Assembly (NCBI GenBank): GCA_030265395.1
Contig: JARFYF010000074.1
Location: forward strand, 93,278,239-93,342,238
Length of the DNA: 64,000 nt
From: Rhina ancylostomus
Lineage: Eukaryota
Direction: 5' to 3'
Shown piece after piece: positions 7,424 to 63,370 of the stretch; position 1 is the first letter of the stretch, and each line of letters begins with the position of its first letter. Made by a program: the position numbers and the translations under genes. The notes below the pieces were generated by a model. That model was not told where the DNA came from. It saw only the letters and a list, made by a program, of their open reading frames with translations, and searched no databases.

Positions 7424-7481
7424 ATGACACCATTAGGAAATCAATTGCTTCTTATTTTACTACATTCCCTTCTCACTGAAG
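7424..7481 (+). CDS. IgSF receptor gene, leader (signal peptide) exon
   Basis: Acceptor ttttttatAG at 7410-7411, ATG 7424, MTPLGNQLLLILLHSLLTE(G) hydrophobic leader, phase-1 donor G|GTAAGA at 7482 matching the phase-1 acceptor of the V exon. Confidence 0.8.
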
Positions 7482-7944
7482 GTAAGAGAGCTCACAATGT
7501 CTTATTTAATTTCACATCAGAGAGCTACAAAAATATTCTCCTACTGTTTAACACCACCCAGCCAGTCCTTGTTCTCTTCCTCCTTGTCTTGCTTTTAATT
7601 GGAGGCCATTGTTATAGCTGGCAGAATGAAGCATGATCTTCCGTTATCCTTCTCCTTCACCATCCTGCCAAATTTGTTGCATTCCAGCTGGCTTGTGTGC
7701 AGAGCTTTTATCCTGTGAATGGGTGTTTTAAAACTGACCCCTTTAACCTTCCTGTTGAAGTGGAAGTTGCACTTGAAACATTCAGCTGATATTCTTTTGG
7801 AAAGTTTAAGTCAATTTGCAAAATTTGGCAGATGGAGATATGAGTAAGTTAGCAATAAAAAATGAAAATGCTGGAAATATTCAACAGGTCAGGCAACAGT
7901 TGTGGGGGGAGAAACAACTTAAGGTCAATGATCCGTCATAGACT

Positions 7945-8815
7945 CATAAAGTCATAGAGAAACGCAGCGCAGAAGTGGACCCTTCCGCCCATCACATCCA
8001 TGCCAACCTTTGTGTCCGTCTGCACTAATCCTATTTGCCTGCATTAGGACTGTATCCTTCTGTGCCTTGCCTATTTAAGAGTCAGTCTGAATGCATCTTA
8101 AACATAGTAAATGTATCTGATTTCACCATCTTTTCTGGCAGCACTTTACAGATATCTGTATAAAAAACTTTCCTTTCAGTTTCCCTTTAAACCTTCTACC
8201 TCTCACCTTAAAACAATGACATTTGATTTTTGATACCCCTACAATGGGTAAAAGATTCTGATTTTCTACCCTATCTATGCCCCTCCTTATCTTATCTACT
8301 TTCAGCAGTTCGCGGGGGGGGGGGGGGGGNNNNNNNNNNCTTTCATCAGTTCACCCCCCCCCTTCACCACCCCCCTCCCAGCCTCCTTAGCTCCAGGGAA
8401 AACAAACCCAGCTTATCCAATCTCTGCCATGACTAAAGTCCCCCAATCCAGGCAACGTCCTGGTGAATCTCCTCTGCAGTCTCTCCAATACAATCAAATC
8501 CTTTCTATAGAGTGGCAATCAGAGGTGCATACAATTTTGTAAGGATGCAACATAACATCCCAGCTCTTTGTTTCTGTACCCTGCATGCCATGTGATTTCT
8601 TCACCACCCTATTGACCTGTGTTGCCACTGTCAAGGAACTATAGACTTAGACCCCTAGATCTCTCTGTCCATCAACTTTCCGTAGTGACCGACCATTTAC
8701 TATATACTGTATGCCCTTCCCACTATTTGACTTCCCAAATTACATCATCTCACACTTGTCAGGGTTAAATTCCATCTGCCAGTCTGTCCAACTTTCCATC
8801 TGACCTATATCCTGC
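7945..8815 (-). mobile_element. Decayed CR1 LINE inserted into a Penelope-derived short element
   Basis: CR1 3'UTR and RT remnants on the reverse strand; flanks (~7860-7935 AAATGCTGGAAATATTCAACAGGTCAGGC, ~9090-9165 GCTGAGTATCTCCAGCATTTT-like) resemble the two halves of the palindromic element at 58920. Confidence 0.65.
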
Positions 8816-9382
8816 TGAAAAGTATTATAACTGTTGAAAGGTTAACTCTGTTGAGCAACAAGGCCACAGTCTATCCCACCCCTGCTCAGGGACATATGAA
8901 AGTAATTCAACAAATTTAAGAGCAGCAATCTTTCAATAAGGAGTGACAATGGTCCCTGGGATGAGGCCTGAGATCTAGTCATTACTCATGGACCACACCA
9001 CCTTGCTGGATGGTTGCTGCAGCAAGGCCACCGGGACACCCAGGGCCCTCTTCTGTGCTGCTTTTCTCTATGACTCCATGAAACAGTATTGACCTTAAGT
9101 TGGTTCTCCCTCCACAACTGTTGCCCGATCTGTTGAGTATCTCCAGCATTTTCGGTTTTTATTGCTAACTTACTCATATCTCCCCATGTTATCACCCCAT
9201 CTGCCAAATTTTTGCATACTGGACTCAGGGCTGAAATGCAACCATGGCATAGTACAGGCAGCTATACTGAAGGTGAACTGACCTTGATTTGAAATGTAAT
9301 AATATGTAATGCACAAGCTGGGAGGTAGATTATTAATGTTGACTGTTCTGCACAAATTAATTCTGTTTATTTTTATCCCAAG

Positions 9383-9748
9383 GAAAATACCAGAATTTGA
9401 TGGTTTCTCAGACACCATCCATGATAAAAGCACTGAAAGGACAGACAGTAGAAATAAGTTGTTCCTACAGCCATGAAAACTATGAACAACTGTTGATTAA
9501 ATGGCAAAGAAATAACTCTGCACAGGAGCTTTGTGATTATGTTTTCAATAGATATAAGACAAATTACAGTCAATGGCAATGTATACAACGTACTAACATT
9601 ATGCTGGACCACTCAACAAATTCGTTTATATTAACAATCGGCGATCTTCAGTTGAATGACTCTGACATATACTTCTGCTGGATTTACCTTGAAATACCCC
9701 CTCCTGTACAAGGGGTAAAAGGTAAAGGCACCAACCTATCAGTGGAAG
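9383..9748 (+). CDS. IgSF receptor gene, germline-joined VJ-type V-domain exon (CD28/TMIGD2/NKp30-like)
   Basis: Acceptor AG 9381-9382, donor G|GTGAGT at 9749, phase 1 both ends. Open frame KYQNLMVSQTPS..VEISC..KW..LTIGDLQLNDSDIYFC..GKGTNLSVE has B-strand Cys, C-strand Trp, DxxxYxC and a J-like GxGT motif in one exon. Confidence 0.93.
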
Positions 9749-10289
9749 GTGAGTTTCTCTGATTGATAGCCCATAAAACAAGGTAACACAAAAACTGGAA
9801 AGGAATAATAATGATGACTGGTAATTTGATGTTCATCTTTGTAGTACAGGTAAACTGTTCCTGTGGGATCATCTGGACCTGATCCCCATCCATCCATGTT
9901 GACTAGGATACCAGATAAATATCTTGCTTTTCACTGCACAATACAAAAGGTTCCTTACCTCAATAGACAGACAAGCTTCTGGGGGCAACTTTTCCTTGCC
10001 CTAGAGGTTGCGTGATATTCCAGTCTCTCAGAGATGGCAGGCTGCTAAGTGATTATTCCAAATGTACAGAGAAACCAGTGCAAAAGTCTAACCTCAAATT
10101 GCACCAGGGGTAACAGGCTGGCAACCTTCACTCCTGGCTTCCCAAACTTCTCACAGGGTGAAAATCTGCCCACAATTTTCTTTCAGTCAACTAAATCAGG
10201 GAGTTTGATCTGAGATCAGAGCCAATAGTGAGTATAAAGTGTGGAAGGAAATGTTTATCCTTCCACTTTGCTCCCATTAGTGCTTCTCA

Positions 10290-10515
10290 TGCTTTGGATT
10301 ACTGGTTGAAATGTGATCACTGTTGTGTATAGGCAAACACAGCAATTAGATTAAATGAAGCAAGATCCCACAATGACAATGCAATGAATGGCTAGTCAAT
10401 GAGTTTTTGATGGTTGACAGATAAACATTGACTAGGGTACCAGATGAATATCTTACTTTTCACTGCACAGTACTATAGATTTCTTAACTCAATAGACAGG
10501 CAAGCTTCTGGTTGC
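10290..10515 (+). mobile_element. Deu-domain SINE (SacSINE1/AmnSINE-like) relic; an ~85 bp part is duplicated at ~9898-9983
   Basis: AGGCAAACACAGCAATT...GCAAGATCCCACAA...GATAAACATTGACTAGGGTACCAG resembles the Deu domain; 9901 GACTAGGATACCAGATAAATATCTTGCTTTTCACTGCAC matches 10430 GACTAGGGTACCAGATGAATATCTTACTTTTCACTGCAC. Confidence 0.5.
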
Positions 10516-10959
10516 ATTAGCCCACATTGCAAGGTTTTGCCATTTATTCATTTAACCATTCATCAATTGCTGTTAAGTTTAGGCCCCCTGGAGTCATGAA
10601 CTTACTGGTTGAATGCTGCTAAACTTTACCAGTTGCCCTTGATGGCTCAGCTCCCCACAGGGTTCAATTGCAGAGATCCTATACACTTACATTAGGGAAT
10701 CTGCTCACAGATCCTGCACCGATTCAAACTGTGCACGACTGCAAGTAAGAAAGGGAAGAATAAAGTAAGTTGGCAAGTTGCATCATTTATGTGCTTTAAT
10801 TACTTAATGTGTTTAAAGTATTTTTTAAATAATGTTTACATTTTTCTGACAAATTATTTAATTTCAGTGGTTTTAAAACTGCTTCTGAATATCAAGGACA
10901 CTCAGAAGGATTGGAAACCTCAACAAAAGCTAGAGTTGGGGGCTGGCTTTTCTACCTAG

Positions 10960-11290
10960 AGTCACAGAATCATGGAGAGATACAGCATGGAAACAGGCCC
11001 TTCAGTCCACTGAGTCCATGCCAAGCATCAAACACACATTTATGCTAATCCTTGATTAATCCCTTGTTTTTATTCTCTGCAAATTCTCATCAGTTTCCCT
11101 CATCTACATACTAGGGGCAACTTACAATGGTTCATTCACATCTTTGGGATGTGGGAGGAAACCAAAGCATCTGGAAGAAATCCATGTGGTCACAGGGAGA
11201 ATGTGGAAACTTCACACAGACAGTGCCCGAGGTCAGTATTGAACCCGGGTCTCCAGTGTCTGAGCCAGAGGATTTACTAGCTGTGCCACT
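10960..11290 (-). mobile_element. tRNA-derived V-SINE (HE1-like) with CR1-type tail
   Basis: TTTGGGATGTGGGAGGAAACC...GGTCACAGGGAGAATGTGGAAACTTCACACAGAC...TTGAACCCGGGTCTC is the reverse complement of the V-domain and B-box. Confidence 0.75.
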
Positions 11291-11719
11291 GTGCTTATCA
11301 AAGATCTCCTGGACAGGCCCACCCACATCAATCCATTTTGTCACTGGAGGCTCTACCATCACTCAGGGTCTTGCTGTCAGACTCCAGGGCCATCTTGGCT
11401 GGCAAGATCAGTCTTCAGGGCATAAAATATACATCTGAGGGTTTTGGGAACATGATTTGTGAGTGCACCCAATATATCCACCTCAACAAAATCTGAGCCA
11501 TTAATTCTCCCTTCCCTCTTCATAGGAGCTCACTCACCTGATGGTTATTTCCAGTACTTTCTGCTTTTATTTCTGACATTGGCTTTTGAATAATGATGTC
11601 ACTGCAAAGCACATTGTAAACTTCACAAAAAACAGTTGAAGGAAGACTGGGAAGTAATGCAAGGCAGTGTGGACAATGCAAAGAAAGGGTCTAATCTGCT
11701 TTTGCTCTTCATTTTTCAG

Positions 11720-12066
11720 CTTGCCCAAGGGTCCACCTAAAAGCAGAGCTTCTGCCTTCCCCTAATGAGGGTGGACAGCTCACCTGTGCATCACTGGAAT
11801 TCTACCCTGGCAGCATTCAAGTGTCCTGGTTTAGAGATGAACAGTTAATCACCAATGGGACAGAGGACGGGCCCCTCTATTCCAACAGTGACGGCTCATT
11901 CTCCATCACAAGTTTCTTGAATCTTTCTCTATCTGACTGGAACAATGGTGGGAATTATTCCTGTCAGGTGAACCATTCAAGGCTCTCCAAACCTATCACT
12001 CAACTATGCCCAAGCTTTTTGTCCATTTATACTGACCCCATTTTCCTGCATACTTCTATCTGCTGA
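11720..12066 (+). CDS. IgSF receptor gene, C1-set domain exon; no 3' splice donor, reads to stop at 12064-12066
   Basis: Acceptor atttttcAG 11718-11719, phase 1. (A)CPRVHLKAE..QLTCASLEFYPGSIQVSWF..NSDGSFSITSFL..DW..YSCQVNHSRLSKPIT carries the C1 signatures FYP, W, DGSF and YxCxVxH. Confidence 0.88.
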
Positions 12067-12165
12067 CATACACCTTCTTCGCTCCCCTATTGCCACTTTC
12101 GGGAACTTTGAACTTTAACTCCAAGGTCACTCTGTCAACATTCACTAGCACCTTATCATTTATGA
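12060..12165 (-). mobile_element. CR1 fragment abutting the C1 exon
   Basis: TTGCCACTTTCGGGAACTTTGAACTTTAACTCCAAGGTCACTCTGTC..CCTTATCATTTA resembles the CR1 copy at ~8620-8700 (TTGCCACTGTCAAGGAACTATAGACTTAGACCCCTAGATCTCTCTGTC..CCATTTA). Confidence 0.55.
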
Positions 12166-13129
12166 CCTCATTTTAACTGACAACCTATTCTGTATGTGCT
12201 TGATGGTGTTTCAACATTATATTGAGATATATACTACACATAGATCTAAAGATTTCAGGGATTATGAATTTATTTCCCTGTCGATAAATGTACAGATGCT
12301 ATGAATGTCAGGATGATGTCTGAATGTGTGCCCCTCAAATGAAGTAAGAAATTTGTGCTCAACATACAAGGGTCTTTTCTCAGGCCTATTATCTCATCCC
12401 AGTCCTTGAATTTAATGTTCTGAGGTATGACCTAAATACAGCAATCACTTTGTTTTGGTTCCTGGGGTTAATGTTCTTACTGCAGAACATGCTGCATTGT
12501 GCAGTAAGGTGAATCAGATCAGATTTAGGAATTAACTTCCCACCCTCACATCACTATTGTGTGAAGACAGCTCTCAGTGATCTCAATACAGCGAAAATTT
12601 TGTGGTGGTAAAAACTGATGCGTTAACAAGTTGGAAATTACAGATTTCCCAGCACAGGATGAGTGTCTGGTCTGGGACAAAACCGATACTATTTCCAATA
12701 TTTGTCAGTTTACCAGTTCCCTTTTATATACATTTAACCGTCTCTCCCCCCCCCCCCCCACTTTAGTTCTTGTACTCACTGATGCACTTTAGTGGATCCC
12801 TAGGATTGCGTGTGTTTGGCGCCTGGTCCCGCATAGTTTGGAAAATATTCCAATTGCGGTAGATGGGTGTACTGCCGTCGGGGATTGCCCAACAGAATTT
12901 TAAACCAGGTAATAATGCCTAACTGAAAAGCATAGTGTGGTGTAGAGAATACCTTAAATCGAGCTGTTTTTCTCAGTCTTTGCCTCCATCTCCATCAAAG
13001 TTGTTTAACTTCATAAAAGTAAAAGCCTTTATTTTTCTTTTTTTTTAAATGTTCAGAACTTGTTTGTTGCTGTTGGCATTTTCAGGTTTCTGCTATACTG
13101 ACAACATTTTTGAGACTGTTTATTTTCTT

Positions 13130-13746
13130 TAAACGTGGGGCAGATTCAGGTCTTCACGGAGTTATTTAATCCCAGTGGTCGCCGTAATCGGAATATTGGC
13201 CGTTTTGCCGGGTTTTTACTTCCCCCCCCCCCCCGATTTTTGTCTTGTGTGGTGTTATCGAGCATATTCGTCAGCAGTTATCGCCGTCTTAACCACCCGG
13301 GAGCAGTGGGACTGAACTGACACGGAAAGTTGTTATGCAACCACCAGAACGAGTGGAGTTGGCTGGTCCTCCCATCGACAGCGGGCAAAGGTTGAGAGAG
13401 AGTTAAACAGAGTTCGGAGGGGAGGGGCCGCACGGCGCGCTCGACCTATCGGATGGCGGGGACCGATTCGCGACCTGTCATCTGGCTCAAGAAGGACAAG
13501 CGAGGCGGAAAAAAAATCACCACAGCAATCGAAGCGTAAAACCTCCCACCGGGTGGACGTTCAAAAGCAAGATTCTCCCCTTTGCCTTTTCTCTTTATAA
13601 TTGGTCTTCGCCTCGGAGCGGCTGTACAATCCTCAGCAGTGTCCTGAGACTGTATGGTCGGCTCCATATCCCGACTCCCCCACCACCTCAACCACTTGAC
13701 CCAACTAGACATTACTTTTACACACGCGCGCAAAGAGAATAAGAGG
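13130..13746. promoter_or_regulatory. CpG-rich, promoter-like island
   Basis: Dense CpG (e.g. GGGGCCGCACGGCGCGCTCGACCTATCGGATGGCGGGGACCGATTCGCG) in an otherwise CpG-depleted AT-rich window; GC-box-like GGGAGGGGCCG; minus-strand CCAATTATAAA at ~13594-13604. Confidence 0.65.
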
Positions 13747-15232
13747 NNNNNNNNNNNNNNNNNNNNNNNNNNNNNNNNNNNNNNNNNNNNNNNNNNNNNN
13801 NNNNNNNNNNNNNNNNNNNNNNNNNNNNNNNNNNNNNNNNNNNNNNCTGTCACAAACAATGAAAGCAGTGGATTGAAACAGCAAGAAACTCATGCCACCT
13901 CACTTAAGGGTCAAGGTGCATTCCCAAGAACATGAATAGAATCATCAATAAAAGTGTTTGTTATAGTAGTACATACAGAGAGACGTGTTACTAACAACAC
14001 TGCTGTGCCAGGAGCCCTAGAACAGATCCCTGTCCTCCCTGTTGCTGTTTGTTGCCATGCTAGGAATCTGGGTGCCAGGAATCTGGTGTGAACCCCTGCC
14101 CTCCACTGTCATTCCCATAGCAGTGAGTTACCAACAGCTGGGTCTGGAGAGCCTGCCTGTGAGGGTGATGTTAGGCAAGCTGGGGTGACTTGTCCATCTG
14201 ATCTGCATTGCAGGACTGCACACTGGCCAGCAGAGTGGGTGCAGACCATTGCTGGGGACTGGCAACACCTTGTCCATGTGTTGATAGACTGCCAGATACG
14301 ACAGTCTCTCTCATCACTGGTTAGATGTAACAGATGCTGTGTCGCCCACTTTGTTTGGCTGTAGAGGTCTCCTCCACACAGAGCTGTCTCTATGGTANNN
14401 NNNNNNNNNNNNNNNNNNNNNNNNNNNNNNNNNNNNNNNNNNNNNNNNNNNNNNNNNNNNNNNNNNNNNNNNNNNNNNNNNNNNNNNNNNNNNNNNNGTC
14501 TCCCTCTTTGTTTGGCTGTATAGGTCTCCTCAACACAGAGCTTTCTCTATGGTAACGAGGTCAACAGAGAAGGGGAGATAGCGGCTTCCAAGAAATCTAT
14601 CAGGACTGTTGAGAGAGACCGTAGGATCCAGGTGGTTTGTTTGTCACCATACAGAGCAGGTGTCCCCAGTCCCCAGTCACACTCACTGTGGCAGCCAACA
14701 CGAGGTTTACGCACCATGCCTCAGTGCTGAGAGGCCACACAGTCCACCCAAGCACACCCAATACCAGTCTTACTGGGCAGCCTCTCCACACATAGCTGTG
14801 GGATGTTTCTTCACTGTGTAAGCACCCACATAGGGCAGAAGTTTGCACCAGGTTCCCAGCACAGCAACGTGCAGCCTGACAAGGTGTCTTTAATAAAGTA
14901 TGGGGAGTAGCCGTGAGTGTTCATAATGGAGGACACAGAGGGCTATTGTGAAGTAACACTCTCTTGGGTCATACTTAGTAGGATAACTGTATATTTTTAA
15001 TTGAAACCCAATGAAAGTTTGAAATAATTAAATAACAGCTATTGTAAAAGTGACTACTACAACTGGAAGCTTTACTAGTAAAAAAATAAAGCTTCATTAC
15101 GCCCAGAACCTCAGCAGCCAGATGAAAACAGAATTGTTTATTTAAGTCAATGTGCAGGCAATGGAACAATGTTTTATCACTATCTGCTAATCAGTGGATG
15201 ACATGTAATGCCTTATCAATAACTCTTTACAG

Positions 15233-15337
15233 ATGAAGAAAATGAAAATATCACTTGTGCAATAGAAACAAGAGTCTCTCTCTTAGCTGTGGCAATGTTG
15301 ATTGTGATGATAGGACTTCTTTTGTACTCCAAACCCA
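15233..15337 (+). CDS. IgSF receptor gene, stalk plus transmembrane exon (Cys in stalk, Arg at TM start)
   Basis: Acceptor ctctttacAG 15231-15232, donor A|GTAAGT at 15338, phase 1/1. (D)EENENITCAIETRVSLLAVAMLIVMIGLLLYSKP contains a 17-residue uncharged hydrophobic run. Absent from the ORF track. Confidence 0.8.
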
Positions 15338-15416
15338 GTAAGTACTCTCAATTAATTAATTTATTGCTTTGAAACTGAGTTCAGATATTGCAGTTCTGTT
15401 TTTTTTGTGTTTGAAG

Positions 15417-15430
15417 TGTTGGTTGCTTAA
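15417..15430 (+). CDS. Candidate terminal cytoplasmic exon (M)LVA-stop
   Basis: T-rich tract then gaAG at 15415-15416, 79 nt intron; phase-1 join gives ATG TTG GTT GCT TAA. Confidence 0.4.
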
Positions 15431-16230: not shown

Positions 16231-18841
16231 AAAACACTTAACAACCAATTATACTTTTGAAGTGTCCCCAAATCCCAAACTTCACAAATTAAATAGACAA
16301 TTTTTAATGACAGAGAGTTTGTTTGGTAGTAATTAAGACACCACTTCATTAAATGGGTCCTTAAGCTTGAAATGGCAGCTATATCTTTCTGTGGTGAATT
16401 TTCTTCAAATCTAGTTTGCAAATACAGCAACTACATGCTGTTCAACACATTTCAATGGTGAGGCAGACAGATAGATTCTATTTTTTCAAATGTGCCCATC
16501 ACCTGCAGTTACACAAAGAGAACAGAAACCATCACTTGTCTCACTGCCAGCAAATTCTTTCTTTGTGACAATCCTCCACCAGCTAGAATACTCTCGGAAT
16601 GCATTTTGCTTTGTTGACATGTTTGCAACAAGCTTTTATCTGAGGTACAAACTGAAAATATTGATAATGCAGTCAAAACCTGGAAGTAAAAGGAAGTTTA
16701 CCATTTCAAATGGAATTCTTCATAAAAGTTATTTTACAAACAAGTTGGTGAGAAATTATGTTACAGTCAAATATGTTCCAGTAAATCCTGCAAAACTTTC
16801 TCTAAAAAGTGGAAGGTTATAAACAAAATGAGAAGAGTAAAAGCTGGAGATCCACTGCATGCAATTAGCATTTGAAAGAAAAAGTTTTCACTGATTTGTT
16901 TGATGTATATTGGATTTGATAGTTAATTGATGTGATTGAACTAAAATAATCAAAATTAAATTCTTTTTCATGTTTCTTTTTAAATCTACTTGCAATTTCA
17001 GTTGTAATACATTACATGCTAGTTGTTTCTTCCTTCTAGAACTGCTGATGAATTTGAATNNNNNNNCTTGTGCCATGCGTTTAAACATCAACAGTTACAC
17101 TCATTAGTGCAACAAGTACTAGGAAATCTGCCCTTGAAGTCCACAACTGCCTAATTGAGAAGCAAGGTTACAATTTTGGGTTTTCAATTTAAAATAAGCA
17201 TAATTACAGTACCCCCTATTAAGTGTATGATTTTTCTTATTTCTTCGGGAAATCTGTCTGGATGAAGAGACTCTACATGATCAAAGTGTGAAATTTCACT
17301 TGCACTCATAAATTCTTTTGGATAACTATTGTGTTCAGACCACTATTCATTCTTGTAATTCACCATGAGCTGTTCCTTGTGTTCCAGAGATAATGGTCCA
17401 AAGCTTCTTTACCTTGGTTCCAAATGTATTTAATTAACCAAGTTTCAATTCCCCAAGTGCCATAGTGTGATTCAAATTCCTTTTTGGATTATTAGTCCAG
17501 GCCTCAGGATTTTAGTTCAATAATCTGCCACAGTGCTACTGACATATCCATTTAAAACAAAAGACATATACAGAGAGAAGCAGCTTTCCACCCTACAATA
17601 TATCTGCAATGCCTCCTCGATTTGGTATGAGCATAGAAATGTTAAATATGAGCAGTTCATTTAAATGCAGGACCTCCACAAAGTCAACTGGCATAGCTAA
17701 GTCTCTGAGAGAAGTCAGCCTAAGTTTTTGCTCCAGCTCAAATCACAGCACACAATGTGGATGAGTCCTCACTGACCAAGCTCATTAGTAGGCTCTGTGA
17801 GGTGCAATTGGTCACCATGAAAGCTACATTTGGCTGAGAATACAAATGTTAAATAAAGTGTGATTAATAAGGTTACAGTGTTTATTGACTTCTTGTGTAA
17901 ATATAAAGACATTTTTTGTTTGGATTGGCAATAGAAGTGTTAATAATCCATTCACTTATTTCAAGGCCAACTCATAATGTATGAAGATTAATACTCATNN
18001 NNNNNNNNACTCATTCAACTTATTCAAGTCTAAAGTTTTCAGGCACCTTCCGATATTCAGAAAACTGAGACTTGTTTGTGTGTGTGTATTTGCTGGAAAT
18101 CTGAAATAAAACCAGAAAATACCACAAACACTCAGCATTCAGGCAGGATCTGGCAAAAGTGAAACAGTTAATACTTCATGCTGAAATGTTCTGTCAGAAT
18201 TGCGGTAGAGAGAAGACAAGTTAGTTTTTAGCTGCAGAGAGGATCAGGGAGGAATGGANNNNNNNNNNNNNNNNNNNNNNNNNNNNNNNNNTGATTCTAC
18301 TGTTTATTGAGTTGTCTGGTTAATAAGGTAATGAGGGTAATTAGGGAGAGAGTGAAAATGTAAAGCTGTAGGACAAAAACCAACAGGTCAGTCCATGCTA
18401 GTGGAGAGAGGAAAAACCAAGTTAACCTTACAGATGGATAACCTGCATCAGAACTGATTGGTTCTGACACAGGGAAAGCAAGTTACTTAAAATTGTTGAA
18501 TTCCTGTCTTGAAATCTGCGACATGCTGAGGTGAGGGGGTGTTGTCTCTTAAGCTAACAACAAGCCTTGTTGGAACTGTGCAGGAAGAAACAGATGACTG
18601 ACTTTTGCCAGAACCACCGCTGTTAAGACCCAGGCTTCTACTGTATTTTCAAGATTGGAAGTCCAAGAGTCGCATCACATCTGTCACTACATTCTGTTGT
18701 GAGGCTTCACGTGGAGACCAATCTGGCTGGGATTCCTGGAATTATGCTGGGAAAATGATCATTCAGATCCTGCATCTCTCTTAATCTCAATGACCACACT
18801 TAAGAGGCATTTAGGTGAGCACATGAATAGGCAAGGCAGAT

Positions 18842-43400: not shown

Positions 43401-46400
43401 TCATGGAGGCCAAGATCATGATGAGCCTCAGCCTCCTGGCCACAGGATCTATACAAGGGTCTATGACAGATCTCTGTAAGTCTCCCAATTTGCTGCTCAA
43501 TGAGCATCAGAGAGGTGCTTTCAACCACTTTGATTTTATTGAGAACCAGATGGCATTCAGTGGACTGGGATTTGCCACCATTACTGGCAGGCAGCCATTG
43601 ACTACATTAAGAATCTTCATCAACAGTTAAAGGTTTACACTCTTTCAATGTTTAGGCAGGATTAAGAANNNNNNNNNNGCTTCATCTCTCAGATAAGCAG
43701 AGACAGCAGACATTATCCATGTGGGATGTGAGAGACACCCTTGTAAAGAGCTGCTTTTTGCAAGCCCATTGCAAAGCAAGTGACCTCTACACTCCAATCA
43801 TTACCACCAACATGGTAATCAGGCAAAGTATTTAGCTGACACATAATAATCCTTCAGATGCTTTACAGATTCACCCTGAACAAACGACTGAAATTGAATC
43901 TCTGATTCAATAACTGAAATGCTTGTCACAACAGTTTTCAGTGGTTTGCAGCTCATCCTGACGTATCTGTGTTGTTCTATTAAAATTCTCATACCTGGAA
44001 GAGAAAACTGGAGTCACCTCCTGCTAGGATCTTCTAATGGCAGCCTTGGCAGACCTCCTGGCCCTCTCTGGTGCACAGGATCTCCAGCCTGTCATGTAAC
44101 TCATTGACTAGGCCTTTCACATCACTGTATCTGGGACCTGGGAGTGTATCTGGGATCTCTGTCTCCCTTCCTTGTGGTACTTCATTCGTCCGCGGCAGCT
44201 ACAGTGTACGTTGCTGCTGTTCCCCAACCATGGGGAATATGTCATTAAGGGCTGACACCCTATTCAGTCTCATAGCAACTTGTCAGAGATTGAATTCAAC
44301 AGTGTGGTCTTGATGCAACCATTTCAGTGCATCTTTCAGGGGGCAAATTACTCTAGTGCTATTTCCAATGTCTTTCCATCAACCTTATGACATTTTGTAG
44401 TGGACTAGAATAAGCACTTAATGCAATGACAGGTTGCTGTATTGAAAGTAGGCATGATCCAGCACATATATTGGTAACCCAGAAAACCTCCACAGTTTTG
44501 TTACTTTAGTTCTTTTAATTCTACATCCTTACACTCTTGAGTTTCAAGAAGCAAAGTCCTGTAAGAGAACAATGGCCATCAAATATACACATACTTTCAT
44601 AGTGTAATGCAAGAACCCTAAAAAAATTACACCAGAAAACTATGGTTTGAAACCTCTTCACTTACCTCTGTCAACATTAGCCCGTAAAGATGTCAACATG
44701 CCTTCTGACACTAAAGTCTTATAAAGGGCACCTTTACACGCTCGTTCAGATTTTCTGGACCCAGAAGCTTCTGTTTTTTTATTGATTTCCTTGTTTTCAC
44801 CTTTCACTTCACTTAGTGCATTATGGGAAAGTAGTTGATCAGTTACAGGAAACGTCTCAGTTTTGATGGGGCTGGTGGTAATCTTCTCAGGATCAGAAAC
44901 CTTTGAGTGTTTGTTGAGATCTGAAACCTTCTCAGCAGGTAATTTTATTGATTTTGGTTTAATTTTTTTCTTTGGTGGGCTGGAGACAGAGTGTAACTGA
45001 TTTTCAGTCGACTTTGCTGAGCATCGTCCACTTTTTACTGGACTTCCTGAAGGCTTTTCAGTGCCCCAGTCACCTTTAGCCACAGCATCTATAGTGTACA
45101 TTAAGCTATCTATGTCAGACTCTGATGATTTCCGTTTCTTTCCGCTTTTTTTAAATGTCTGNNNNNNNNNNAAATGTCTGTTTATCAACTTTGGTAGATT
45201 CAAGTTTAACTTTTTTCTTCTTCTTCTTCTTAATTTTTTCACCTTTGTTAAGACTTGTCATAGAATTGTCAGTTAGCAAAGACAATGGTTTTTCATTAGC
45301 AATCCACTGCCTTGGCTTAGTATCAAAGTCATTCTGTGTACCTATTGCAGAATTAACAGTAGGGACCTCAGGCTTATGTCCATCTTCCAAGATAACTGTA
45401 GAAGACTCAGTCTTCACTCCTTCTGTTACCAACCGGTCTGAACACATCTGAAGCAAATAACACACAATGCAATCAAACAGAATTTTCAGAAGAATATACT
45501 AGAATAAGCAAATCTTTCAATTCCTATTTTAGATAATGGAGGATAGCATGTGATTAAAATTGTCAACTCTGGTTGGCTATATTCTTAGCGTTTTCATCAA
45601 ATTTCCCCCTGTCCTAGCTAATAAAATAGCTTTTATTCAAATTGCTTATTATGAAAACTAATTAAATAAAAATATTCAAAATAGAAAAGATACAAATTTG
45701 AGTGCAAATATGACTTTTATGCCCCCCAGAACCAACCTCGCCACCCCTCCTCCTCTCCTGATTGTTCACTGTCTGATGGATTAATCATTAATTTATGGAG
45801 ACACCATAATCCTGGAAGGTTGGCAAAGCTATTTGTAAACAAACAGCAAAGAGGCTGCCAGTAATTCTAATTAACACCATGGTAACAGCAGTGTATTTTA
45901 TTAACATCACTGGAACTATAAAATTTAAGTTTAAAACAACTTATGGCCAAATGTCAAATGGCATCTTCCTTAACTTGGAGGATATGGGACAGAGCTCTAA
46001 AACTTGTGGTTCACTGTAACAGGAAAAATAATTAATTGCCAGAGTCATTATCAAGTGAAATACCTATTTAATTTCTGAGCTGGAAGAAGAACAGGGTCAT
46101 TATCCTATCATTCAGCTGAGGTTGGACTAAACACATCTCAAGCCCGTGATCACAGATGAGTGAGGTTACAAGCTGTCATCCACAGATGATGAAATCTGGT
46201 GTCTTATTTTACTCTGTGTAATCTTAGTTCTAACACACTTTAAGTCGGCAAGTACCAGGGGAAAAAAGTAATGACTGTTTAAAATACATCAAGTTTACTT
46301 GACTTTGGTAGACGAATTTAATACATTTCAAAGCAATCCAACATACCACTGATTGCAAAGTACTGTGATTTTATTTCAATTTGCTTTTTTACAATCAAGA

Positions 46401-49400
46401 ATGTTTGGCTGTCCTTGTCATAAAGAACACATGCATGTTCTCACTTGATCTATGCAGCTGATAAACCTCAAGGCCAGGAGATTTTTATATTGACAGTTCT
46501 GTTTTATTTTTCTGTAGAACTATTTAACAAGTTGTTTTATTCACTATAAACTCACACACTCATTCCAGCGGCCAGAGCAAACAGCTCCAGCAGTAGCTTG
46601 TAGAAGTACTGGGCCATTAACTGAAGTATTATTCCAATTTCAGATGACATACCTCTGCTAACTGAAACAATGCTGAATTCCCACACTGCTTTGTCGAGTC
46701 AGGAACCCCTGGCTGTGCTGTACTGGAGGAAATCTGCATGAAGAAAGAAATGATTTTCAGATTAACTGTCATATCCTTTATTATAATAATTACATTTCTG
46801 GGGCTGGGAAGAAAGAACTGAGACCAATGTAAATGTATTTTTTGTTATGAGTACTTGAACATTAGTTCTGACTAAATCCATGTGAAATATCGAATATTAT
46901 CAGTAAGAACCCTTCATTAAGGGTAGAGTTATTGTCAGCTACTTTAACAGTGACTTCCCAGTTCTGCATGGAAAATTTGTAAGCAGTCATATGTTCCTAT
47001 TTAACACATGCTATCCAGTTAAAGGTGATTACACAAGACTAATACATTCTCTGTACAATACAAGATGGAAAAAGAGTACCAACACTAAGATATATATGAA
47101 TTATTGGGAAAAAAAGATACCCATCATCTAATATAACTCAAAGGTGCAGAGAGCTACCTCTAACTTAAGATAGTGAAGAATGTCTGACACCAATGTAGAA
47201 AAGTTTTACCTGCAGAAGTAACTGTTTGTACAATAACAGAACATGGCTATTGCAATCTGGCACAAATGGCACAAAGGCCATTCCACATTGCTATCTGCAA
47301 TTCTGCCTAAATCAATGAACTTTGTTTTGGCTAGTAGCATCTAGCTTTGGTGGAAAATATAATATTGCCCATTTTCTGAGGATAATCCGGTTGAAGGGTA
47401 CACCTAGAGTCAAGCACCATTTTTGATTGATCACAAATCCCAAGCATTGGGATATTTAAATTGTCAGTTAAATTTGAAAAAATACATAAAATTAAGTTTT
47501 TTTTTATATATATATCAGAATTTTTGTAACATAAATGTTACTTATGTATTAACATGTTATTATGTAACATAATAAAACATTGATGAGCATTTCTAATATG
47601 TGACAATAGATCTGCTACCTATAGTAAGACAGAAAACACTGAAGGCCTTGTATGTGGTAGAATAGGAAATAAGTAAATGAGAACAGAGAGAGTGTTTCTT
47701 AAAGGGAAAAAATGCTAATCTTTCCCCAGAGAACAGCAATATCCTGTTTTATGCGAAATGATAAATAGTGTGTGATTTCAACAAAATTATTATATTTCAA
47801 TATAATGGATATGCAACAGGAATCAGGAATGCAGATGACCATTGTAAAATATTGTACAATTTACAAGAAATGATGGCAACCAGTTTATTATCAAGATGAT
47901 AATTTGCTCAATGAGTTAACCTGTAATAAAAACTATTCTTCTGTCACCACAAGACAAGCTTTCCTTTCAAGATTACTAACTACTTTACTTATTTTCATTG
48001 TCTTTTAAGTTGTGGGGTATAAAGCAAAACTAACAAAGCAAGGCACATTTAAGTGCAGCAACCTTATTAAACTAGTTCAAGTTCTGAAACCAATTTTTGC
48101 CAAAGTCCATCCTGTCAACTTACCTCCTTGGCTGTTAAGGCATGTTCTCCTGCTAAGAGCAGCATGCTGAGTCCTCCCATTTGAGTGGGATCTATCAGTA
48201 ATGAAATATATGTATGCATTAGTCATTCCTGAAATAATCCCATGACACTATCACAAATAACTACAATTTAGACAATTAACTGTTACCCAATTAACAGCTA
48301 TAATTTCATCTCCATACTGTCACCTGGTAAACAAAAAAATTATTGTTGTATTGTTACAATATACTACCTTGAACAAATATTTTCCTGACTGCTCAGTGGG
48401 TAAATGGACTGAAGGTCTGGATCCTGAACTATATACATTTTCATCCCATCATTCTTTTAAGAAATATATTAATGTTTCAAAAATACAAATAAAAACCTGC
48501 AGTGCAGGCACGGTTTTGTAGTAAAAGAGATGATGCAGATAGATATCTTTATTGGTCACATGTACATCGAAACACATAGTGAAATGCATCTTTTGTGTAG
48601 TGTGTTCTGGGGGCACCCCACAAGTGCCACTCTTCCAAAGCCAATGTAGCATGCCCACAACTTCCTAACCCATATGACTTTGGAATGTGGGAGGAAACCC
48701 ACGCAGTCGTAGGGAGAACGTTCAAACTCCTTACAAACAGCGACGGGAATTGAACCCGGGTTGCTGGCGCTGTAATAGCATTATGCTAACAGCTACACTA
48801 CTGTGCCTGCAAGACTAGTTATATCTCTGCTTTAAGCTAAGTTAAATAATCATTGCCAGAAAAGAATGGGGGGGGGGGGTANNNAAAAGCCACTCCCAAA
48901 GGGGCAGTTATATTGTGGTGGAAATGCTTAGGGTAAATGTGCTCTTTTATGCGCAACAGATGATGGAAACAAGCACAATGTTCCTCAGACAGCTGTTGGG
49001 ACAATGTTCTGTTGAAAATGGGCAAGTCAGCATCATGACTCCCCATTAAGAACCAAAAAGGCCTTAACTGTAATCTGCACATACACGAAACAATCAAAGA
49101 TGTCATCCCCTCACTGTCAGACCCTCCAACAATAGCTGGGGGTGGGGGCGGTTGTCCTTTTGAGTTACACTGGAGTAGATCTTCACTTTCTAATTAAGGT
49201 CTACCCTTGTATTTGAAACTGCATGGTTTCGTGAGCACTTTTGTGTGCTAGAATATTTCAATCACAATAAAAATCACAATATCAGCCATACATTGCATGC
49301 TAATTAATGTCACTGCTGTGTTCCCAACAGCCTCCCTGCATATGCATAGAGAACCACACCACAATCTCCCACTGTGCATGTAAGTGCAGAGCTGTGGATT

Positions 49401-52400
49401 GTAATTAGCCACTAGTTTTCACATAAAGTTCTATTCTGTAGGGTATTAAGTCCTAAGCTACACAACATAATTCTAGTTGAGGTGCCAAAGCAAACATCTG
49501 AATTCAGTTGTTATTCCTTCTCCACCCCTTCTTTAAAATTGGCTTCAACATTATTGTATGTCACAAAACTGATTTTCAGTTTGACAAAGAATATTCTCCA
49601 GTAATTGTCCAACAATCAATTATTTCTAGATCAACACCTCGTAAAAAAGACATGAATTTATCAGAGTAGTGAAGGAAAACTGGGAACAATGAGCTTTAAT
49701 GATATTTAATGAAATGTAGAATGCATTGATAAAATGTGGATGCAAATTATGTTGAATTCTTTAAATGATTGCTTGAGTCAATTTTGAGTCAGATGGAATT
49801 CTAACTTTTAATATTGATCCAGATTTAAATAAATTATAACTCAAGGTTGATTATGGTTTAGCTCAGAGATAACAAGGGAGCTACAGAATTTGGAATTTTA
49901 AAGTAACTTTGCATCTGTAACAAGTATCACCATCTGGATTGTTCATAAAAAGGCTAAGAAATTCAACCTACATTTAAATCTGGTGGAATAAGCTTCATGG
50001 TTGAAATGTAATTCTGCTTATCTTACTCAGGGTACTCTCTGAATAGATTTCCATTGAACCTGTGAGTTGCAGATGCCAATTCTACATCTCTGTTGGGGCC
50101 TTGTCAATGTCAAGATCAGGTTAAGTTGGTATAAACCCGGGAAAACTGAATGGAGCACAAGCCCACATCGTGTCATATTTGGAAGTGGGATGCTATAAAA
50201 GATGATTGGACTCTAATCAAGGATCAGGGCACACTGAAGAGAAGAGGAACAACAGCTAGGTAGAAAGGAACTTTAAATGGGACTGTTAATTTCCAACTTG
50301 TTAAGCCCTAAAATAATGATAAATGCCTTTGACCATCAATGAGATTATCTACCTGCCATGGCAAAGTTGATTTGTGGCATTTCCTCAGTCTTTACCACCC
50401 TTTTGATGATGGGAAAGTCCTTTGTTGGTTCTGTTGGAAATGTCCAAATCTTCTTCCTTGTTGTGACAGTCGGTGATGGACTCTTCAGTGGTTTGTTTGT
50501 TGTTGGACACCACTTGTAACCAGGGTTGGCTTTTAGAAAAGCATCCTTATACTGAGAAAAAGCAACAGCACAATCATTGATAGGAACAATCCAATACCTT
50601 ATTAAACCCACCACTAGCTTGCTGACACAATCAATTATCCGACGAACAGAAAATAATCCTAAATAATTAATGTGACAGAATTTATACACAAGTTTCAAAG
50701 AGCATAGAAATGAAATGGTTGTTGACCTGGCAGTCTGCTTCTTTCCCTATAAATGCAGCCTAACTTACTGAACAATTCAAGCATTTACATTTTCATTTCA
50801 GTAAATATAATTTTGATTGTATTTGCAGCAATTTAATATACACTCTAGAGGAGTTAAGTGAGCATTTAAGTAGTAGAATGTACTTTGTTGACAAGCTTAA
50901 GAGAGAGGTATCCTGGTTCCTCTGCTCCTTATACAGTTTGTAACAACATAAATTGCATATAGTCTGTTTTAAGAAGTTTACAATATGTTGAGTGAACTTG
51001 TCACTCGTATACATTTAGGTCACTAGCAATAAGGCCCAGAATACATACTGTGGTTTCTATATGTCTGTCAATCCAATATTAAAGGATGTAACAGATAACC
51101 TATTCTCACCAGGTTCACTTGTAAACATATGATGATTCACTATATTATTATCAAGTTTTGGAAAAAGATCAGGTTCTGTTCTTTAACCAGTGACAGTTTC
51201 TAAATTGTTGGAGCATTAAAAAAAAGGATAACCTCTAATCATAATCACCCTGATCCATCAGCCCACCCTCACTCATTGTCCAAAATCAAATACCAATGAT
51301 CATATGGGCAAAATATCTAGTGGACCTAGTGTTATGCTTAGGATGAAAATTGAAGAATGGAAGGAGAGTAAACCATTTTATTTAATTGTTGCAATTAGGG
51401 AAAAATATTCCTATATTTCACTGTGTTAAATGAAGACACTGAATTCCGAAATTAGATAAATTAACCTGAATTATTTGGCCTAAACAATCCATGCCTCCAC
51501 TTGAGCCATCACCCACCTTTACTCATCTACATCATTCAGCATAAACTCCCATCTCTTCTTCCTCACAATTGTCTAGCATCCACTTGTATGTATTCATACT
51601 ATTCACTTCAACTATTTACTGTGGTAGTGAGATCCACATTCTCACCACTCTTTGGGTAAAGCCATTTTTAAAAATTCCCCCTCAGATTTCTTGTTTTTTC
51701 TCTCTCCCTCTAATTGTGATGGCCTCTGATTATGCTATTCCATTCCATACAACTGGAAACATCCTCTCTGAATCTATTCTAGCAAAGCCTTTCATAATTT
51801 TAAAGACCTCTATGAAGTCACCACTTGATCTTATTTTCTCAAGGGCACAGAAACAACTTTTAAACCTATGTGTCTGGGGGGGGGGNNNNNNNNNNNNNNN
51901 NNNNNNNNNNNNNNNNNNNNNNNNNNNNNNNNNNNNNNNNNNNNNNNNNNNNNNNNNNNNNNNNNNNNNNNNNNNNNNNNNNNNNCAGAAAAAAATTTTA
52001 AACCTATGTGTCTCCCCCCCCCCCCCCCCCACCAATGATCTCTCCTCCAACTGGTCACCATCTCACTCTGCCTCCCAGCACCATCACTGCTTTTGTCCTG
52101 CACTCGCCACCCACCAACCAAGTAGCCAGCCTCTGACTCCTGCCCTGCCCCAAAATCCTTAAAATTGGTTAAGATGGTAAAGGGCCACGAGGGCCAGTGT
52201 TAACATCAAGATTCAGGAAACTCAATTTGGTTTCTGAAGGAACCAAATCAACATCTGAACTTGTCATTGTGCCATGGTTTTCTGGTTTCAAAAATAAACT
52301 GTTAATAAATTGTTTATGATGTCAATTTTAATCTATTTATAAATGTAAGCATAATCTTAAATAAAATCAAGGATATCCAGCCTTAAGTAAATAGCTGCAT

Positions 52401-55400
52401 GTAGATATATAAAAACATAAACAAATCCCTAGAGATGTAACATCCAATCTTTAAATTTATAAATGCTTGTGCCACCTATTTTAGTAGAATGGATTCCCAG
52501 AGATTCTGCTGGTTATAATTACTTGCAATGATATTGTAACATTTATAAACATTTCGGTCTCATTACTGGTCTCTAATAAATAAATCACCTTAACACCAGG
52601 ACACACATACTTGAAACACAGCACTCCTTCATTTACTATGAACGGCACTGTTGCAGACATCTGTACATTTCATGTAAAAAGAAAAGTATCAGGAAAGATA
52701 TAGTGACATGAAGAAGCTTGACCAATCAGCCAATCATCAATAGCACACAGGAGCTAGGTGATATTGCTTGTGATAGAGGATGGATTAGTCATCCCGCATG
52801 TCATCTTGGAATTGCCTTAATATTTTCCACAAAGCCCATTCCAAGCACTTCCCTGGATAGCATGAACATATATCACATCTTAGTAAATAACTGGAAGCTT
52901 GTAAATTTAGCAACAATTACCTACCACGCAACTCAATCCTGTTAACAGAAATTCCTGGATATGTGATCACTTCAAACACCAACAATTTCAAGAATCGAAG
53001 TTACCTCATGATTTCAATAATGTCTACCTGCCTTCTGTATGATAAAAAGCCCTGCAAAGTATTTTCTGCTGTGCCAGGAAATTTGAAATTCTAGATATCC
53101 CAGTTTAATGCCTTCTTTCAGGCTTATGTTTCACCACCCGGTTAACAATCCTCACAAACTACCAACGGCAGTACAAAAACACAAAGGTGAATTGTTCTGA
53201 TTTGGAATATCTGAAGTGGTAGAAGCAGATCTAGTAGTAACATTTAAAGGAAACTTAGCTGAGTACTTGAAAGGAAAATGGTTATAAAGCTACAAAGTAA
53301 GCGAAAGCAAATGGGACAAATTGGATTGCTCTGGCAAAAAACTAGTGATGGTACAATGGAACCAATGGGGTTTTCTGTGCTGCAACATTCCACAATTCTG
53401 AGTGGCAGCATGCAAATTAATAGTGCATGTCATTATAAAACATCACACACCCAGCTACAATAAAATTGCACAAACTTAACAGTTTACATTGCTATTGGTT
53501 TCAAAGTTTTAGTAAAGCAAGTACCGCACATTTTATTAGTTGTTTTATACTCCCAATTGATAAGGGAATAAAAATGGCTGGCATCCCTGTCTGAGGTCAG
53601 TTGTTATAGTGAAAATATGACAAACCACTTCACATTCTGAGATAGATTTATTATAAATTCAGTATAGCCCAACTAGAATGCAGTAAGCCAAATGGAAAGG
53701 AGCAGTTTTCACTTGGCATAATCCTTACCTTCTTCTTCAGTTGTAGAATAGACTGACACAGATTGTTGTATCACCTAAACAATTTCATTTGCCTCAATAA
53801 AGCTACCTACGTGGGAGCAAGCAGCATAATATAGAAAGTTAAAAAAAAACTGAGAATGAAGATGCTAATAGCCCGAGTCATTTTCATCTTAGTCATAGAA
53901 GCGTATGAAATAGGTGCAGAAAGGAGCCATTTGGCTCCTCGTACCTGCTCTCCCATTCAAAAAGATACTAGATGATCTTTTTCCTCAGAACCACTTTGCT
54001 TCTCCAACCTGGTTGTGGGACAAAATGCAGAATGGGGTGAACAGCTGTTTCAGATGATAGGCAGGTAAACTGTTGTGTTTCTCAGAGATTAGCATGGGTC
54101 CTTCTGAATACTTCATTCCTTTGATATCTAAAATATCACTCTGTCTCAAATATAGTCAGCAACTGAGTGTCTGCAGCTCTGCTGGGTAGAGAATTCTAAA
54201 GATTCGCAACCCTCTAGGTGAAGAAATTTCTTCTTTTCTCTGCCCTGACTGGCTGATGCTTTATGCATTGATGCTTGATACATTGTCCTCAGATTCTAAA
54301 GAACCCTCTTGGGAAACATCAACTCTCTGATATGCCCCTTAAGTGTTTTGCATGTTTCAATGAGATCATCTCTCATTCTTCTAAACTCTTGAGAGTACAG
54401 GCCTGGTCTGCAAAGTCTCCCCTCACTTGACAAATCCACCATCCCAGGACTCAATCTTGTCAAACCTTTGCCATTCCTTGCATATTCTTCCTAATGTAGG
54501 GAGACCCATATACAATATTCTATAAGCAGTCTAATCAGACTCCTGTATAACTGAAACCAAACATCTCCACTCTCAACCTCATCTTCTTTCAATAAAGGTC
54601 AATGTATGATTTACTTGTCTAATTGGTTGTTGAACCTATGTGTTAATTCTCGGTGATTCATGTACAAAGATACCCAGGTCCCTCTAAACACCAATGCTTC
54701 TTTTTGAACTGCTCACCATTTAAAAGGTACCCTGTCCACATCCTTTCTACAGCCAACACTGCCACCTAGATTTGATTCATCAGCGAACTTGGATATTATA
54801 CTCTTGATCTCCTCATCCAAATCATTGACATAGATTGTGAACTCCCAGCACCAACAGCTGCAGCACACTACTGGTTATTGACTCCCCAACCCAAAAATAA
54901 CCCATTTATTCATACTCCCTGTTTCATATGCATAGCTTTATCTCTTGATTATATTTGAAAATAATAATTATTTATACATCAACACATATATCCAAGACAC
55001 AACAAGGAAGATGGAAACAAACCTCACTTTAAATGCCTATTCTTGTCCTGATCCTTTATGTTAATGTTCTCAGTCATCCATTTGACCTGGTCAAAGCTTA
55101 CTGTGACTTCCTTACTAGGTCCCACTGATCAGTGGGTCTTGATGACATCAGCAGGAGTTGATACACACATGTAAAGATGGGCCCCAAGAATGAAGACACA
55201 AGAAACTGCAGATGCTGGAATCTGGAGCAATAACTGAACTCCTCCAACAAGATTGTGTGTGACCCCAAGGATGAGCCTCAGTTCAGCAGGTCAACTCCCA
55301 TAGTTTAAATAAGCCAGCTCTTATAATGCTGTGTGTTGGGAGGTAATCTATGCAATTTTAACTGTCCACCCATCCAATTTCTATTGGATAATTCAATTAT

Positions 55401-63188: not shown

Positions 63189-63370
63189 GGTGCTGTGCTG
63201 CATAACATAAATAGAAACAGCACATGATTAGCAACTCGGGACATCATGGTACATCAGAACTGTAGTGGCATATTGCGATACACCTAACCCCAGGCATGGA
63301 TACTAATCTTCAAATTAAAGAAATATGAGCAACTGTGGCACACCTCATTGTTACAGAGATTCATATTATG
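61070..63370. repeat. Dispersed ~120 bp direct repeat (61070-61192 and 63251-63370)
   Basis: CACCTAATCCCAGGGTTGGATACTAATCTTCAAAT..GAGCAACTGTGGCATATCTCA vs CACCTAACCCCAGGCATGGATACTAATCTTCAAAT..GAGCAACTGTGGCACACCTCA. Confidence 0.85.
63027..63188 (-). CDS. BBX: BBX first coding exon (exon starts 63197)
   Basis: ATG 63188; MKASSRNKDHS...FSEEEEEDEEDEDIDK, 162 nt, donor GTAGAG. Confidence 0.96.

Follow-up and report, generated by a model that had tools for sequence, protein, structure and literature searches.

A probable pair of activating and inhibitory V-C1 receptors with CD28H-type V domains in sharks and rays

We describe a non-rearranging receptor gene, gene A, on the forward strand of a 64,000-nt stretch of the genome of the ray Rhina ancylostomus (the window; G000:C74:93278239-93342238, contig C74 of genome G000). 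Gene A is a real gene with leader, V, C1-set and transmembrane (TM) exons. With a linked twin, gene B, it probably forms a pair of activating and inhibitory receptors of sharks and rays, in which a V domain of the CD28H type is joined to a C1-set domain, linked to a gene for a likely B7 ligand. An earlier note on the window had likened gene A to T-cell receptor (TCR) alpha; the twin, whose tail resembles an ITIM (immunoreceptor tyrosine-based inhibitory motif), and the B7-like gene upstream lay outside that reader's view, and they shift the reading to a paired receptor.

Gene A

Gene A has five exons, given in window positions:
7424..7481, forward strand: exon 1, encoding the signal peptide with its ATG and closed by a GT donor of phase 1; 86% identity to the leader of ortholog P0001
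9383..9748, forward strand: exon 2, V domain including the G strand, EIPPP loop and extra Cys pair C50/C66; AG/GT ends, Pfam V-set, no recombination signal sequence (RSS), model of predicted local distance difference test score (pLDDT) 92
11720..12004, forward strand: exon 3, C1-set domain, without its last ~7 codons and donor in the assembly; from Pfam, tblastn, donor scan and contigs
15233..15337, forward strand: exon 4, short stalk and TM segment with a conserved Arg at its outer end; AG/GT ends, phase-1 GT donor
17040..17108, forward strand: exon 5, short cytoplasmic tail with 7 N bases inside, the frame-shifted remains of the tail exon seen in sharks; carries neither an ITIM nor an activation motif (ITAM)

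The leader, single-exon V, C1 and TM exons lie where the earlier note had placed them, and splice signs, Pfam and tblastn agree; the TM exon encodes the segment that the note cited. Phase-1 junctions occur at the leader, V and TM exons; the V exon scores 57.9 bits, above the Pfam V-set cut-off, and the exon from 11720 scores 67.4 bits, above that for C1-set; and each of the four is matched in tblastn by orthologs P0001 (Hemitrygon) and P0002 (a Logan record clustered with Leucoraja). The V domain is indeed non-rearranging, its J-like strand joined in one exon, with no RSS heptamer within one mismatch in 9300-9900 around it. The J-like character of the G strand survives in part: 15/18 relatives have GxG, but none of the 18 has the preceding Phe or Trp. 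That the exons assemble into one receptor is not confirmed for the window as it stands: they are present, but a splice donor is missing from the C1 exon there and in-frame assembly fails. The V-C1 junction (window 11720-11724) creates a further Cys where C1 begins, which all orthologs lack.

The TM Arg is found in 8/8 gene-A sequences with a TM exon and, at that column, in 0/7 aligned B sequences (models P0006, P0007 and P0033, with no recognisable TM exon, were left out of TM counts). It is a single Arg at the outer end, with no second basic TM residue in gene A, and it follows four hydrophobic residues in sharks and polar residues in rays. Its conservation makes the adaptor-dependent activating receptor of the earlier note a fair proposal. 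The stalk Cys is not conserved: only 3/8 of the gene-A sequences that include a TM exon carry it, Trp standing there in four sharks and Arg in one skate, and its column aligns in sharks with a Trp at the membrane edge. This non-conservation rules out a TCR-alpha reading of the stalk and TM segment, and the general likeness to TCR alpha is not supported either, given one basic TM residue rather than two, no F/W-G-x-G, and a CD28H-type EIPPP loop in V. The cytoplasmic tail is no intron read-through but is encoded by the exon at 17040-17108; read in the shifted frame used by the Hemitrygon model, it gives ~23 residues. The shark version of this exon codes for a longer, acidic tail, which in some species closes with a Tyr motif. 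Two database models hint at soluble or truncated isoforms: P0018 (Leucoraja isoform X3) skips the TM exon and P0035 (Chiloscyllium) the V exon.

At least 12 Logan members of the skate cluster (15 of its 16 members being listed), of 268-309 aa, lie on contigs of 981-1169 bp. Contigs of that size can hold a coding sequence of five exons only in spliced form, so gene A appears to be transcribed in a skate relative, where contigs join its exons.

Gene B, the elasmobranch family and the C1 domain

The twin lies beyond the window:
G000:C74:93221544-93233536, reverse strand: gene B, five exons with canonical junctions; head to head with gene A, its ATG 52 kb upstream

Its tail carries V/A-I-Y-x-L-L, as do 9/9 database B proteins with a tail, the canonical VIYSLL being present in 4. 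The family is represented in 15 named elasmobranch genera; five of these, like this genome, have both genes, and elasmobranchs account for 19/20 profile-search matches. Three protein searches, word-limited and in one case scoring only 8000 candidates, found no bony-vertebrate member; in skates the protein searches found gene A and no gene B. A and B accessions are consecutive in Carcharodon and Mustelus. Databases name family members "Ig light chain-like", "SIRPA-like" or "tapasin-like", and all 15 aligned family proteins have one C1 domain.

V domains sort by gene, the B clade having support of 99/99. In four sharks the identity between A and B is 100, 97.9, 93.7 and 95.8% for C1 and 55, 48, 54 and 62.5% for V, and orthologous C1 domains of those sharks are 78-88% identical. 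C1 thus sorts by species and V by gene in sharks: C1 has evolved in concert. The two genes show the marks of paired receptors: linked twins, a charged TM segment set against an ITIM-like tail, and gene conversion. A C1 tree made by a quick method places A and B in a clade of their own (97), with its sister not resolved and no tie to any sampled immunoglobulin (Ig)-like or TCR-like C1. The top PDB match of the C1 exon is UrIg2, with a score summed over three domains.

The V domain

Motifs are the main support for a CD28H-type V domain, structure and tree being ambiguous. The IPPP loop and the extra Cys pair are invariant in 16/16 family V sequences, and in reptiles and chondrichthyans the CD28H motif is reported to be E-I-P-P-P (PMC11599192, cited here and below from the sections and supplements consulted). 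After gene B, the best paralogs of the gene A V domain in its own genome are loci L003 (E 5e-10) and L004 (2e-9), and L003 fits the skate CD28H motif in supplement 4 of the same paper. TCR, Ig and CD28-type labels of such own-genome loci rest on motifs and RSS rather than annotation.

In a second V tree, of 31 rows, A and B join the CD28H and CD28H-like (CD28HL) group at 93/85. For this tree and the approximately unbiased (AU) test, 31/47 rows were kept; those dropped were L029, the two B7 domains and 13 near-redundant ones. The gene A V model (pLDDT 92) has CTLA-4 as its top Foldseek match with antibodies close behind, and the gene B V passes the ICOS V-set cut-off; overall the fold searches do not separate CD28/CTLA-4 from TCR or Ig V domains. 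Atlas searches returned generic Ig clusters only.

The linked B7-like gene and a proposed mechanism

Along the contig the B7-like gene comes first, followed by gene B, gene A and BBX; the outer two genes are:
44658..63227 of the window, reverse strand: BBX, exons for HMG box and DUF2028; tail to tail with gene A
G000:C74:93186643-93195709, reverse strand: B7-like gene, V, C and V exons, HHLA2-like; beyond gene B, 90 kb from gene A

The earlier naming of the neighbour as BBX is supported by HMG-box and DUF2028 matches on the minus strand, a combination known from BBX. In human, BBX lies near HHLA2, with CD47 and IFT57 between the two; from BBX to the B7-like gene, a filtered scan of open reading frames (ORFs) recognised exons of neither CD47 nor IFT57 (G000:C74:93158239-93278238). 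IgV-IgC-IgV is the layout of HHLA2, at human 3q13.13 (PMC11119147, in part), and HHLA2 (B7H7) is reported as the ligand of CD28H (PMC11599192). V1 of the linked gene has CD276 and VTCN1 as best matches.

A complex model of the gene A V domain with this V1 scored 0.73, against 0.00 for the best control; its runs share at least 87% of contacts, the partner has pLDDT 86, and the interface comprises residues 103-108. The mark used was reached by 51/78 solved and 2/108 mismatched pairs.

From the exons, orthologs, twin, motifs, linked V-C-V B7 gene and homogenised C1, all seen directly, we infer the following steps of binding and signalling. The CD28H-like V domain of A would bind the HHLA2-like B7 protein on other cells, its EIPPP loop docking on the B7 front sheet as in CD28/CTLA-4. 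The TM Arg of A would pair with an Asp of FcR-gamma or CD3-zeta, ITAM adaptors that would then give activation; such Arg-Asp adaptor pairing is known for NKp30, NKp46 and GPVI. The Tyr motif of gene B would recruit SHP phosphatases and inhibit. Pairing as A:A, B:B or A:B through the C1 domains may be what keeps these alike.

Among 83 flanking ORFs (filtered from 423 candidates), Pfam recognised no Ig exons other than those of the B7-like gene and of control loci. Between genes B and A, on the forward strand, lies a solitary ORF that resembles an exon and has AG/GT ends (G000:C74:93251450-93251632; L012:3212-3394); its only PDB match is CD166/ALCAM (E 0.032), and neither a second copy nor a further ALCAM-like exon turned up.

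The break in the C1 exon

Orthologs extend ~7 codons past 12004 to a donor, where the window instead turns to repeat-derived DNA with a stop near 12064; the only phase-1 GT ahead of that stop precedes the F-strand Cys of C1. Two features mark the break:
11982..12004, forward strand: 23-base segment, present in X1 and X2 runs in two contigs, each of which parts from the window's sequence on one side; likely collapse point, single copy in the assembly
12005..12162, no strand: dispersed-repeat fragments directly after the break, from repeat matches and contigs

Contigs of four sequencing runs were compared over the C1 exon region, 11700-12400 (701 bases), and none bridges the window's junction after 12004. 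In X1, the best run, one contig equals 11826-12004 with no differences and then has 5 non-fitting letters, and a second equals 11982-12400, preceded by 26 non-fitting letters. X2 has the same pattern with 16 and 26 such letters. X3 extends the C1 exon, with the frame kept, up to a GT donor; in X8 what follows 12004 is different sequence, at least 2.2 kb long. The missing C1 end was not found elsewhere in the assembly, where exon DNA matches genes A and B only and the 23-base segment occurs once. Differences from X2 number 2/178 in the exon and 16/396 in the intron (one-sided p=0.048, the exon contig having been chosen as ortholog by its low difference count); the better conservation of the exon favours a gene still under selection.

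On these contigs we favour an assembly collapse at the 23-base repeat over a dead gene as the likelier reason for the missing donor. The less likely alternative is that a true deletion in this ray lineage took the donor, and that the gene is now a pseudogene or encodes a V-C1 form that is secreted and ends ~20 residues into the intron. In its favour, no C1 donor is present in the window, the tail frame is shifted relative to sharks, the extra Cys stands at the C1 start, no gene-A match was among the hits for Pristis, Mobula and Hypanus, and the X1 and X2 contig ends also fit a deletion plus an insertion with target-site duplication. Against such damage, leader, V, C1 and TM exons are free of stops and frameshifts, the X1 exon contig departs from the window after 12004 at a junction left unbridged, X3 reaches its donor in frame and X8 holds the extra sequence at that point, and the exon differs less than the intron from X2.

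Evidence weighing against a CD28H-type receptor pair

Several results count against the paired-receptor interpretation. For the V domain, the 93/85 tree support falls below the starred level, the AU test leaves standing a forced clade that unites A and B with TCR V (p-AU 0.075), and a wide structure search ties TCR V (Z 15.6, root-mean-square deviation (rmsd) 2.0, 108 aligned) with CD28 (Z 15.2, rmsd 2.3, 113 aligned). C1 homogenisation is weak in this genome, where A and B share 78.5% at protein and 87% at DNA level, and the 100% C1 match in Scyliorhinus could be an exon shared between gene models. On the activating side, in rays polar residues precede the Arg, which stands right at the border of the hydrophobic stretch; an Arg 2-3 residues further out is present in three B proteins (P0013, P0015 and P0031); and gene-A tails vary, with Tyr motifs in some sharks and in skates and none conserved in rays, such that gene A itself may signal without a partner in some lineages. 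On the inhibitory side, the canonical ITIM is present in only 4/9 B tails. In this assembly the C1 of gene A cannot splice to the TM exon in frame, and the expression evidence comes from skate contigs. As to the ligand, the HHLA2 identity of the B7-like gene rests on layout and synteny rather than a tree, and the pass of the complex model may reflect memory of solved CTLA-4/B7 structures; it indicates likeness and not which B7 member binds.

Other interpretations of the pair

It is unlikely that genes A and B are simply the elasmobranch orthologs of a known non-rearranging VJ-C1 pair, PRARP1/2 or a Xenopus VJC1 gene. In Fu 2019 and Ohta 2019 these are said to be non-rearranging VJ-C1 membrane proteins, encoded as a gene pair and with an ITIM-type tail. 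By that description they resemble A and B, although here the tail motif is in gene B only; PRARP is a pair of VJ(-C1) genes with tails bearing an ITIM or a switch motif (ITSM). The parts consulted of PMC10751288 and PMC11599192 count PRARP among joined-VJ genes. Those parts of PMC10751288, however, cite PRARP as linked to the major histocompatibility complex (MHC), among its VJ genes, whereas A and B lie between BBX and the HHLA2-like gene, and the three protein searches with the limits given above yielded no bony-vertebrate member; nor did a PRARP sequence come up among the matches. A member with TM Arg and a linkage to B7 are not known for PRARP.

We regard as improbable, on present sequences, that A and B are a surviving link between the CD28 family and the antigen receptors, with germline VJ-C1, A:B pairing through C1 and an ITAM adaptor set beside an ITIM, next to the gene of their own B7 ligand. 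If that were true, B7 recognition would have been the original job of the VJ-C1 unit later split by RAG.

Least probable is an extension of the earlier note's idea: a TCR-like invariant heterodimer, paired through near-identical C1 domains and left over from the VJ-C1 gene before RAG divided it. In agreement with it are the phase-1 exons in a V-C1-TM layout, the divergent transcription of the two genes, the homogenised C1, the TCR V that ties for first place in the structure search and the TCR kinship left unrejected by the AU test (p-AU 0.075). It is contradicted by F/W-G-x-G in 0/18 relatives and the loss of GxG in 3/18, by a GxG that is equally typical of CD28H, by a stalk Cys in 3/8 and a single basic TM residue, by a C1 in its own clade away from the sampled Ig- and TCR-like C1 domains, and by skates that yielded gene A only. 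Pre-RAG relic status for gene A, as floated in the earlier note, is possible.

Relation to known receptors

The adjacent twins of SIRP-alpha/beta, PIR-A/B and Siglec-5/14 pair a charged TM segment with an ITIM and are homogenised by gene conversion. Genes A and B are alike in all three respects, their tail motif being ITIM-like; unlike those pairs, they homogenise the membrane-proximal C1 while their V domains stay ~50% apart. The SIRP ectodomain is V-C1-C1, so that A and B, some of whose orthologs carry the SIRP name at NCBI, have one C1 where SIRP has two. NKp30 (NCR3) has a VJ-type V domain, a TM Arg and a B7-family ligand, B7-H6; gene A shares the V type, the Arg (8/8) and, by prediction, a B7-family ligand, but NKp30 is a single V without the C1 of gene A.

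CD28H/TMIGD2 and CD28HL1-3 (PMC11599192) share with A and B the E-I-P-P-P loop of complementarity-determining region 3 (CDR3), GxG in the G strand, a single-exon V and, here by prediction, a B7-type ligand. A and B differ from them by the added C1-set domain and extra V Cys pair, a tail without YxNx, another locus and, in A, the TM Arg; separate CD28H- and CD28HL-like genes of this genome lie on contigs C57 and C52. The 2024 survey, in the sections consulted, treats the CD28 family as single-V receptors with nine members (PMC11599192). By its definition A and B have the Pro-rich CDR3 (EIP/PPP); they depart from a single V-TM-tail plan, as a C1 exon stands between V and TM; their cytoplasmic Tyr motif is ITIM-like in gene B and variable in gene A; and their locus, with BBX and a V-C-V B7 gene, matches the synteny of none of the nine named members. 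UrIg and UrIg2 are likewise elasmobranch non-rearranging VJ genes with C1 (PMC12227049 and PMC10751288, both in part), but in those accounts UrIg has several C domains, a secreted form and linkage to the MHC or to the antigen-receptor complex, against one C1 and a TM segment in A and B. The A/B locus is on C74, and the TCR V cluster of this genome on C12.

Non-rearranging VJ-C1 genes (UrIg, PRARP) and the CD28 family are thus already known. The literature search, whose reach did not include Flajnik 2012, Flajnik 2023, Fu 2019 or Ohta 2019, yielded no description of the A/B pair. The strings "bbx" and "hhla2", like the prefixes under which skate and white-shark members are accessioned, have 0 occurrences in 9 supplements of PMC11599192. 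A conserved elasmobranch pair joining a CD28H-type V to a C1-set domain falls outside the single-V definition of that survey, as far as consulted, and brings a further lineage of non-rearranging VJ-C1 genes, distinct from UrIg, into the debate on the precursors of RAG-split receptors. One locus would also encode a directly testable receptor-ligand pair together with a paired activating/inhibitory design.

Other loci

On contig C63 a cluster of germline-joined V exons (L007, L077, L080, L081 and L085; G000:C63:137.49-138.02 Mb) has very short CDR3 and no RSS; a PDB search with L007 did not identify this member. CD28HL2 is reported, in the parts consulted, as not found in rays (PMC11599192), and a V exon close to the CD28HL2 motif of supplement 4 is present here as L057 (G000:C52:20384526-20384840). 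L006 with L114/L115 (G000:C46:6665000-6684999) is a joined-V gene with an Arg TM exon and a second, similar TM exon, a candidate of the NKp30/NCR3 type. No C1 exon was seen near L005, L006 or L003 in the 12 stretches examined. L005, a CD28-like V with a KPPP loop, lies 30 kb from the B7-like V L105 on the same strand (G000:C51:14435411-14465338), possibly a second linked receptor-ligand pair.

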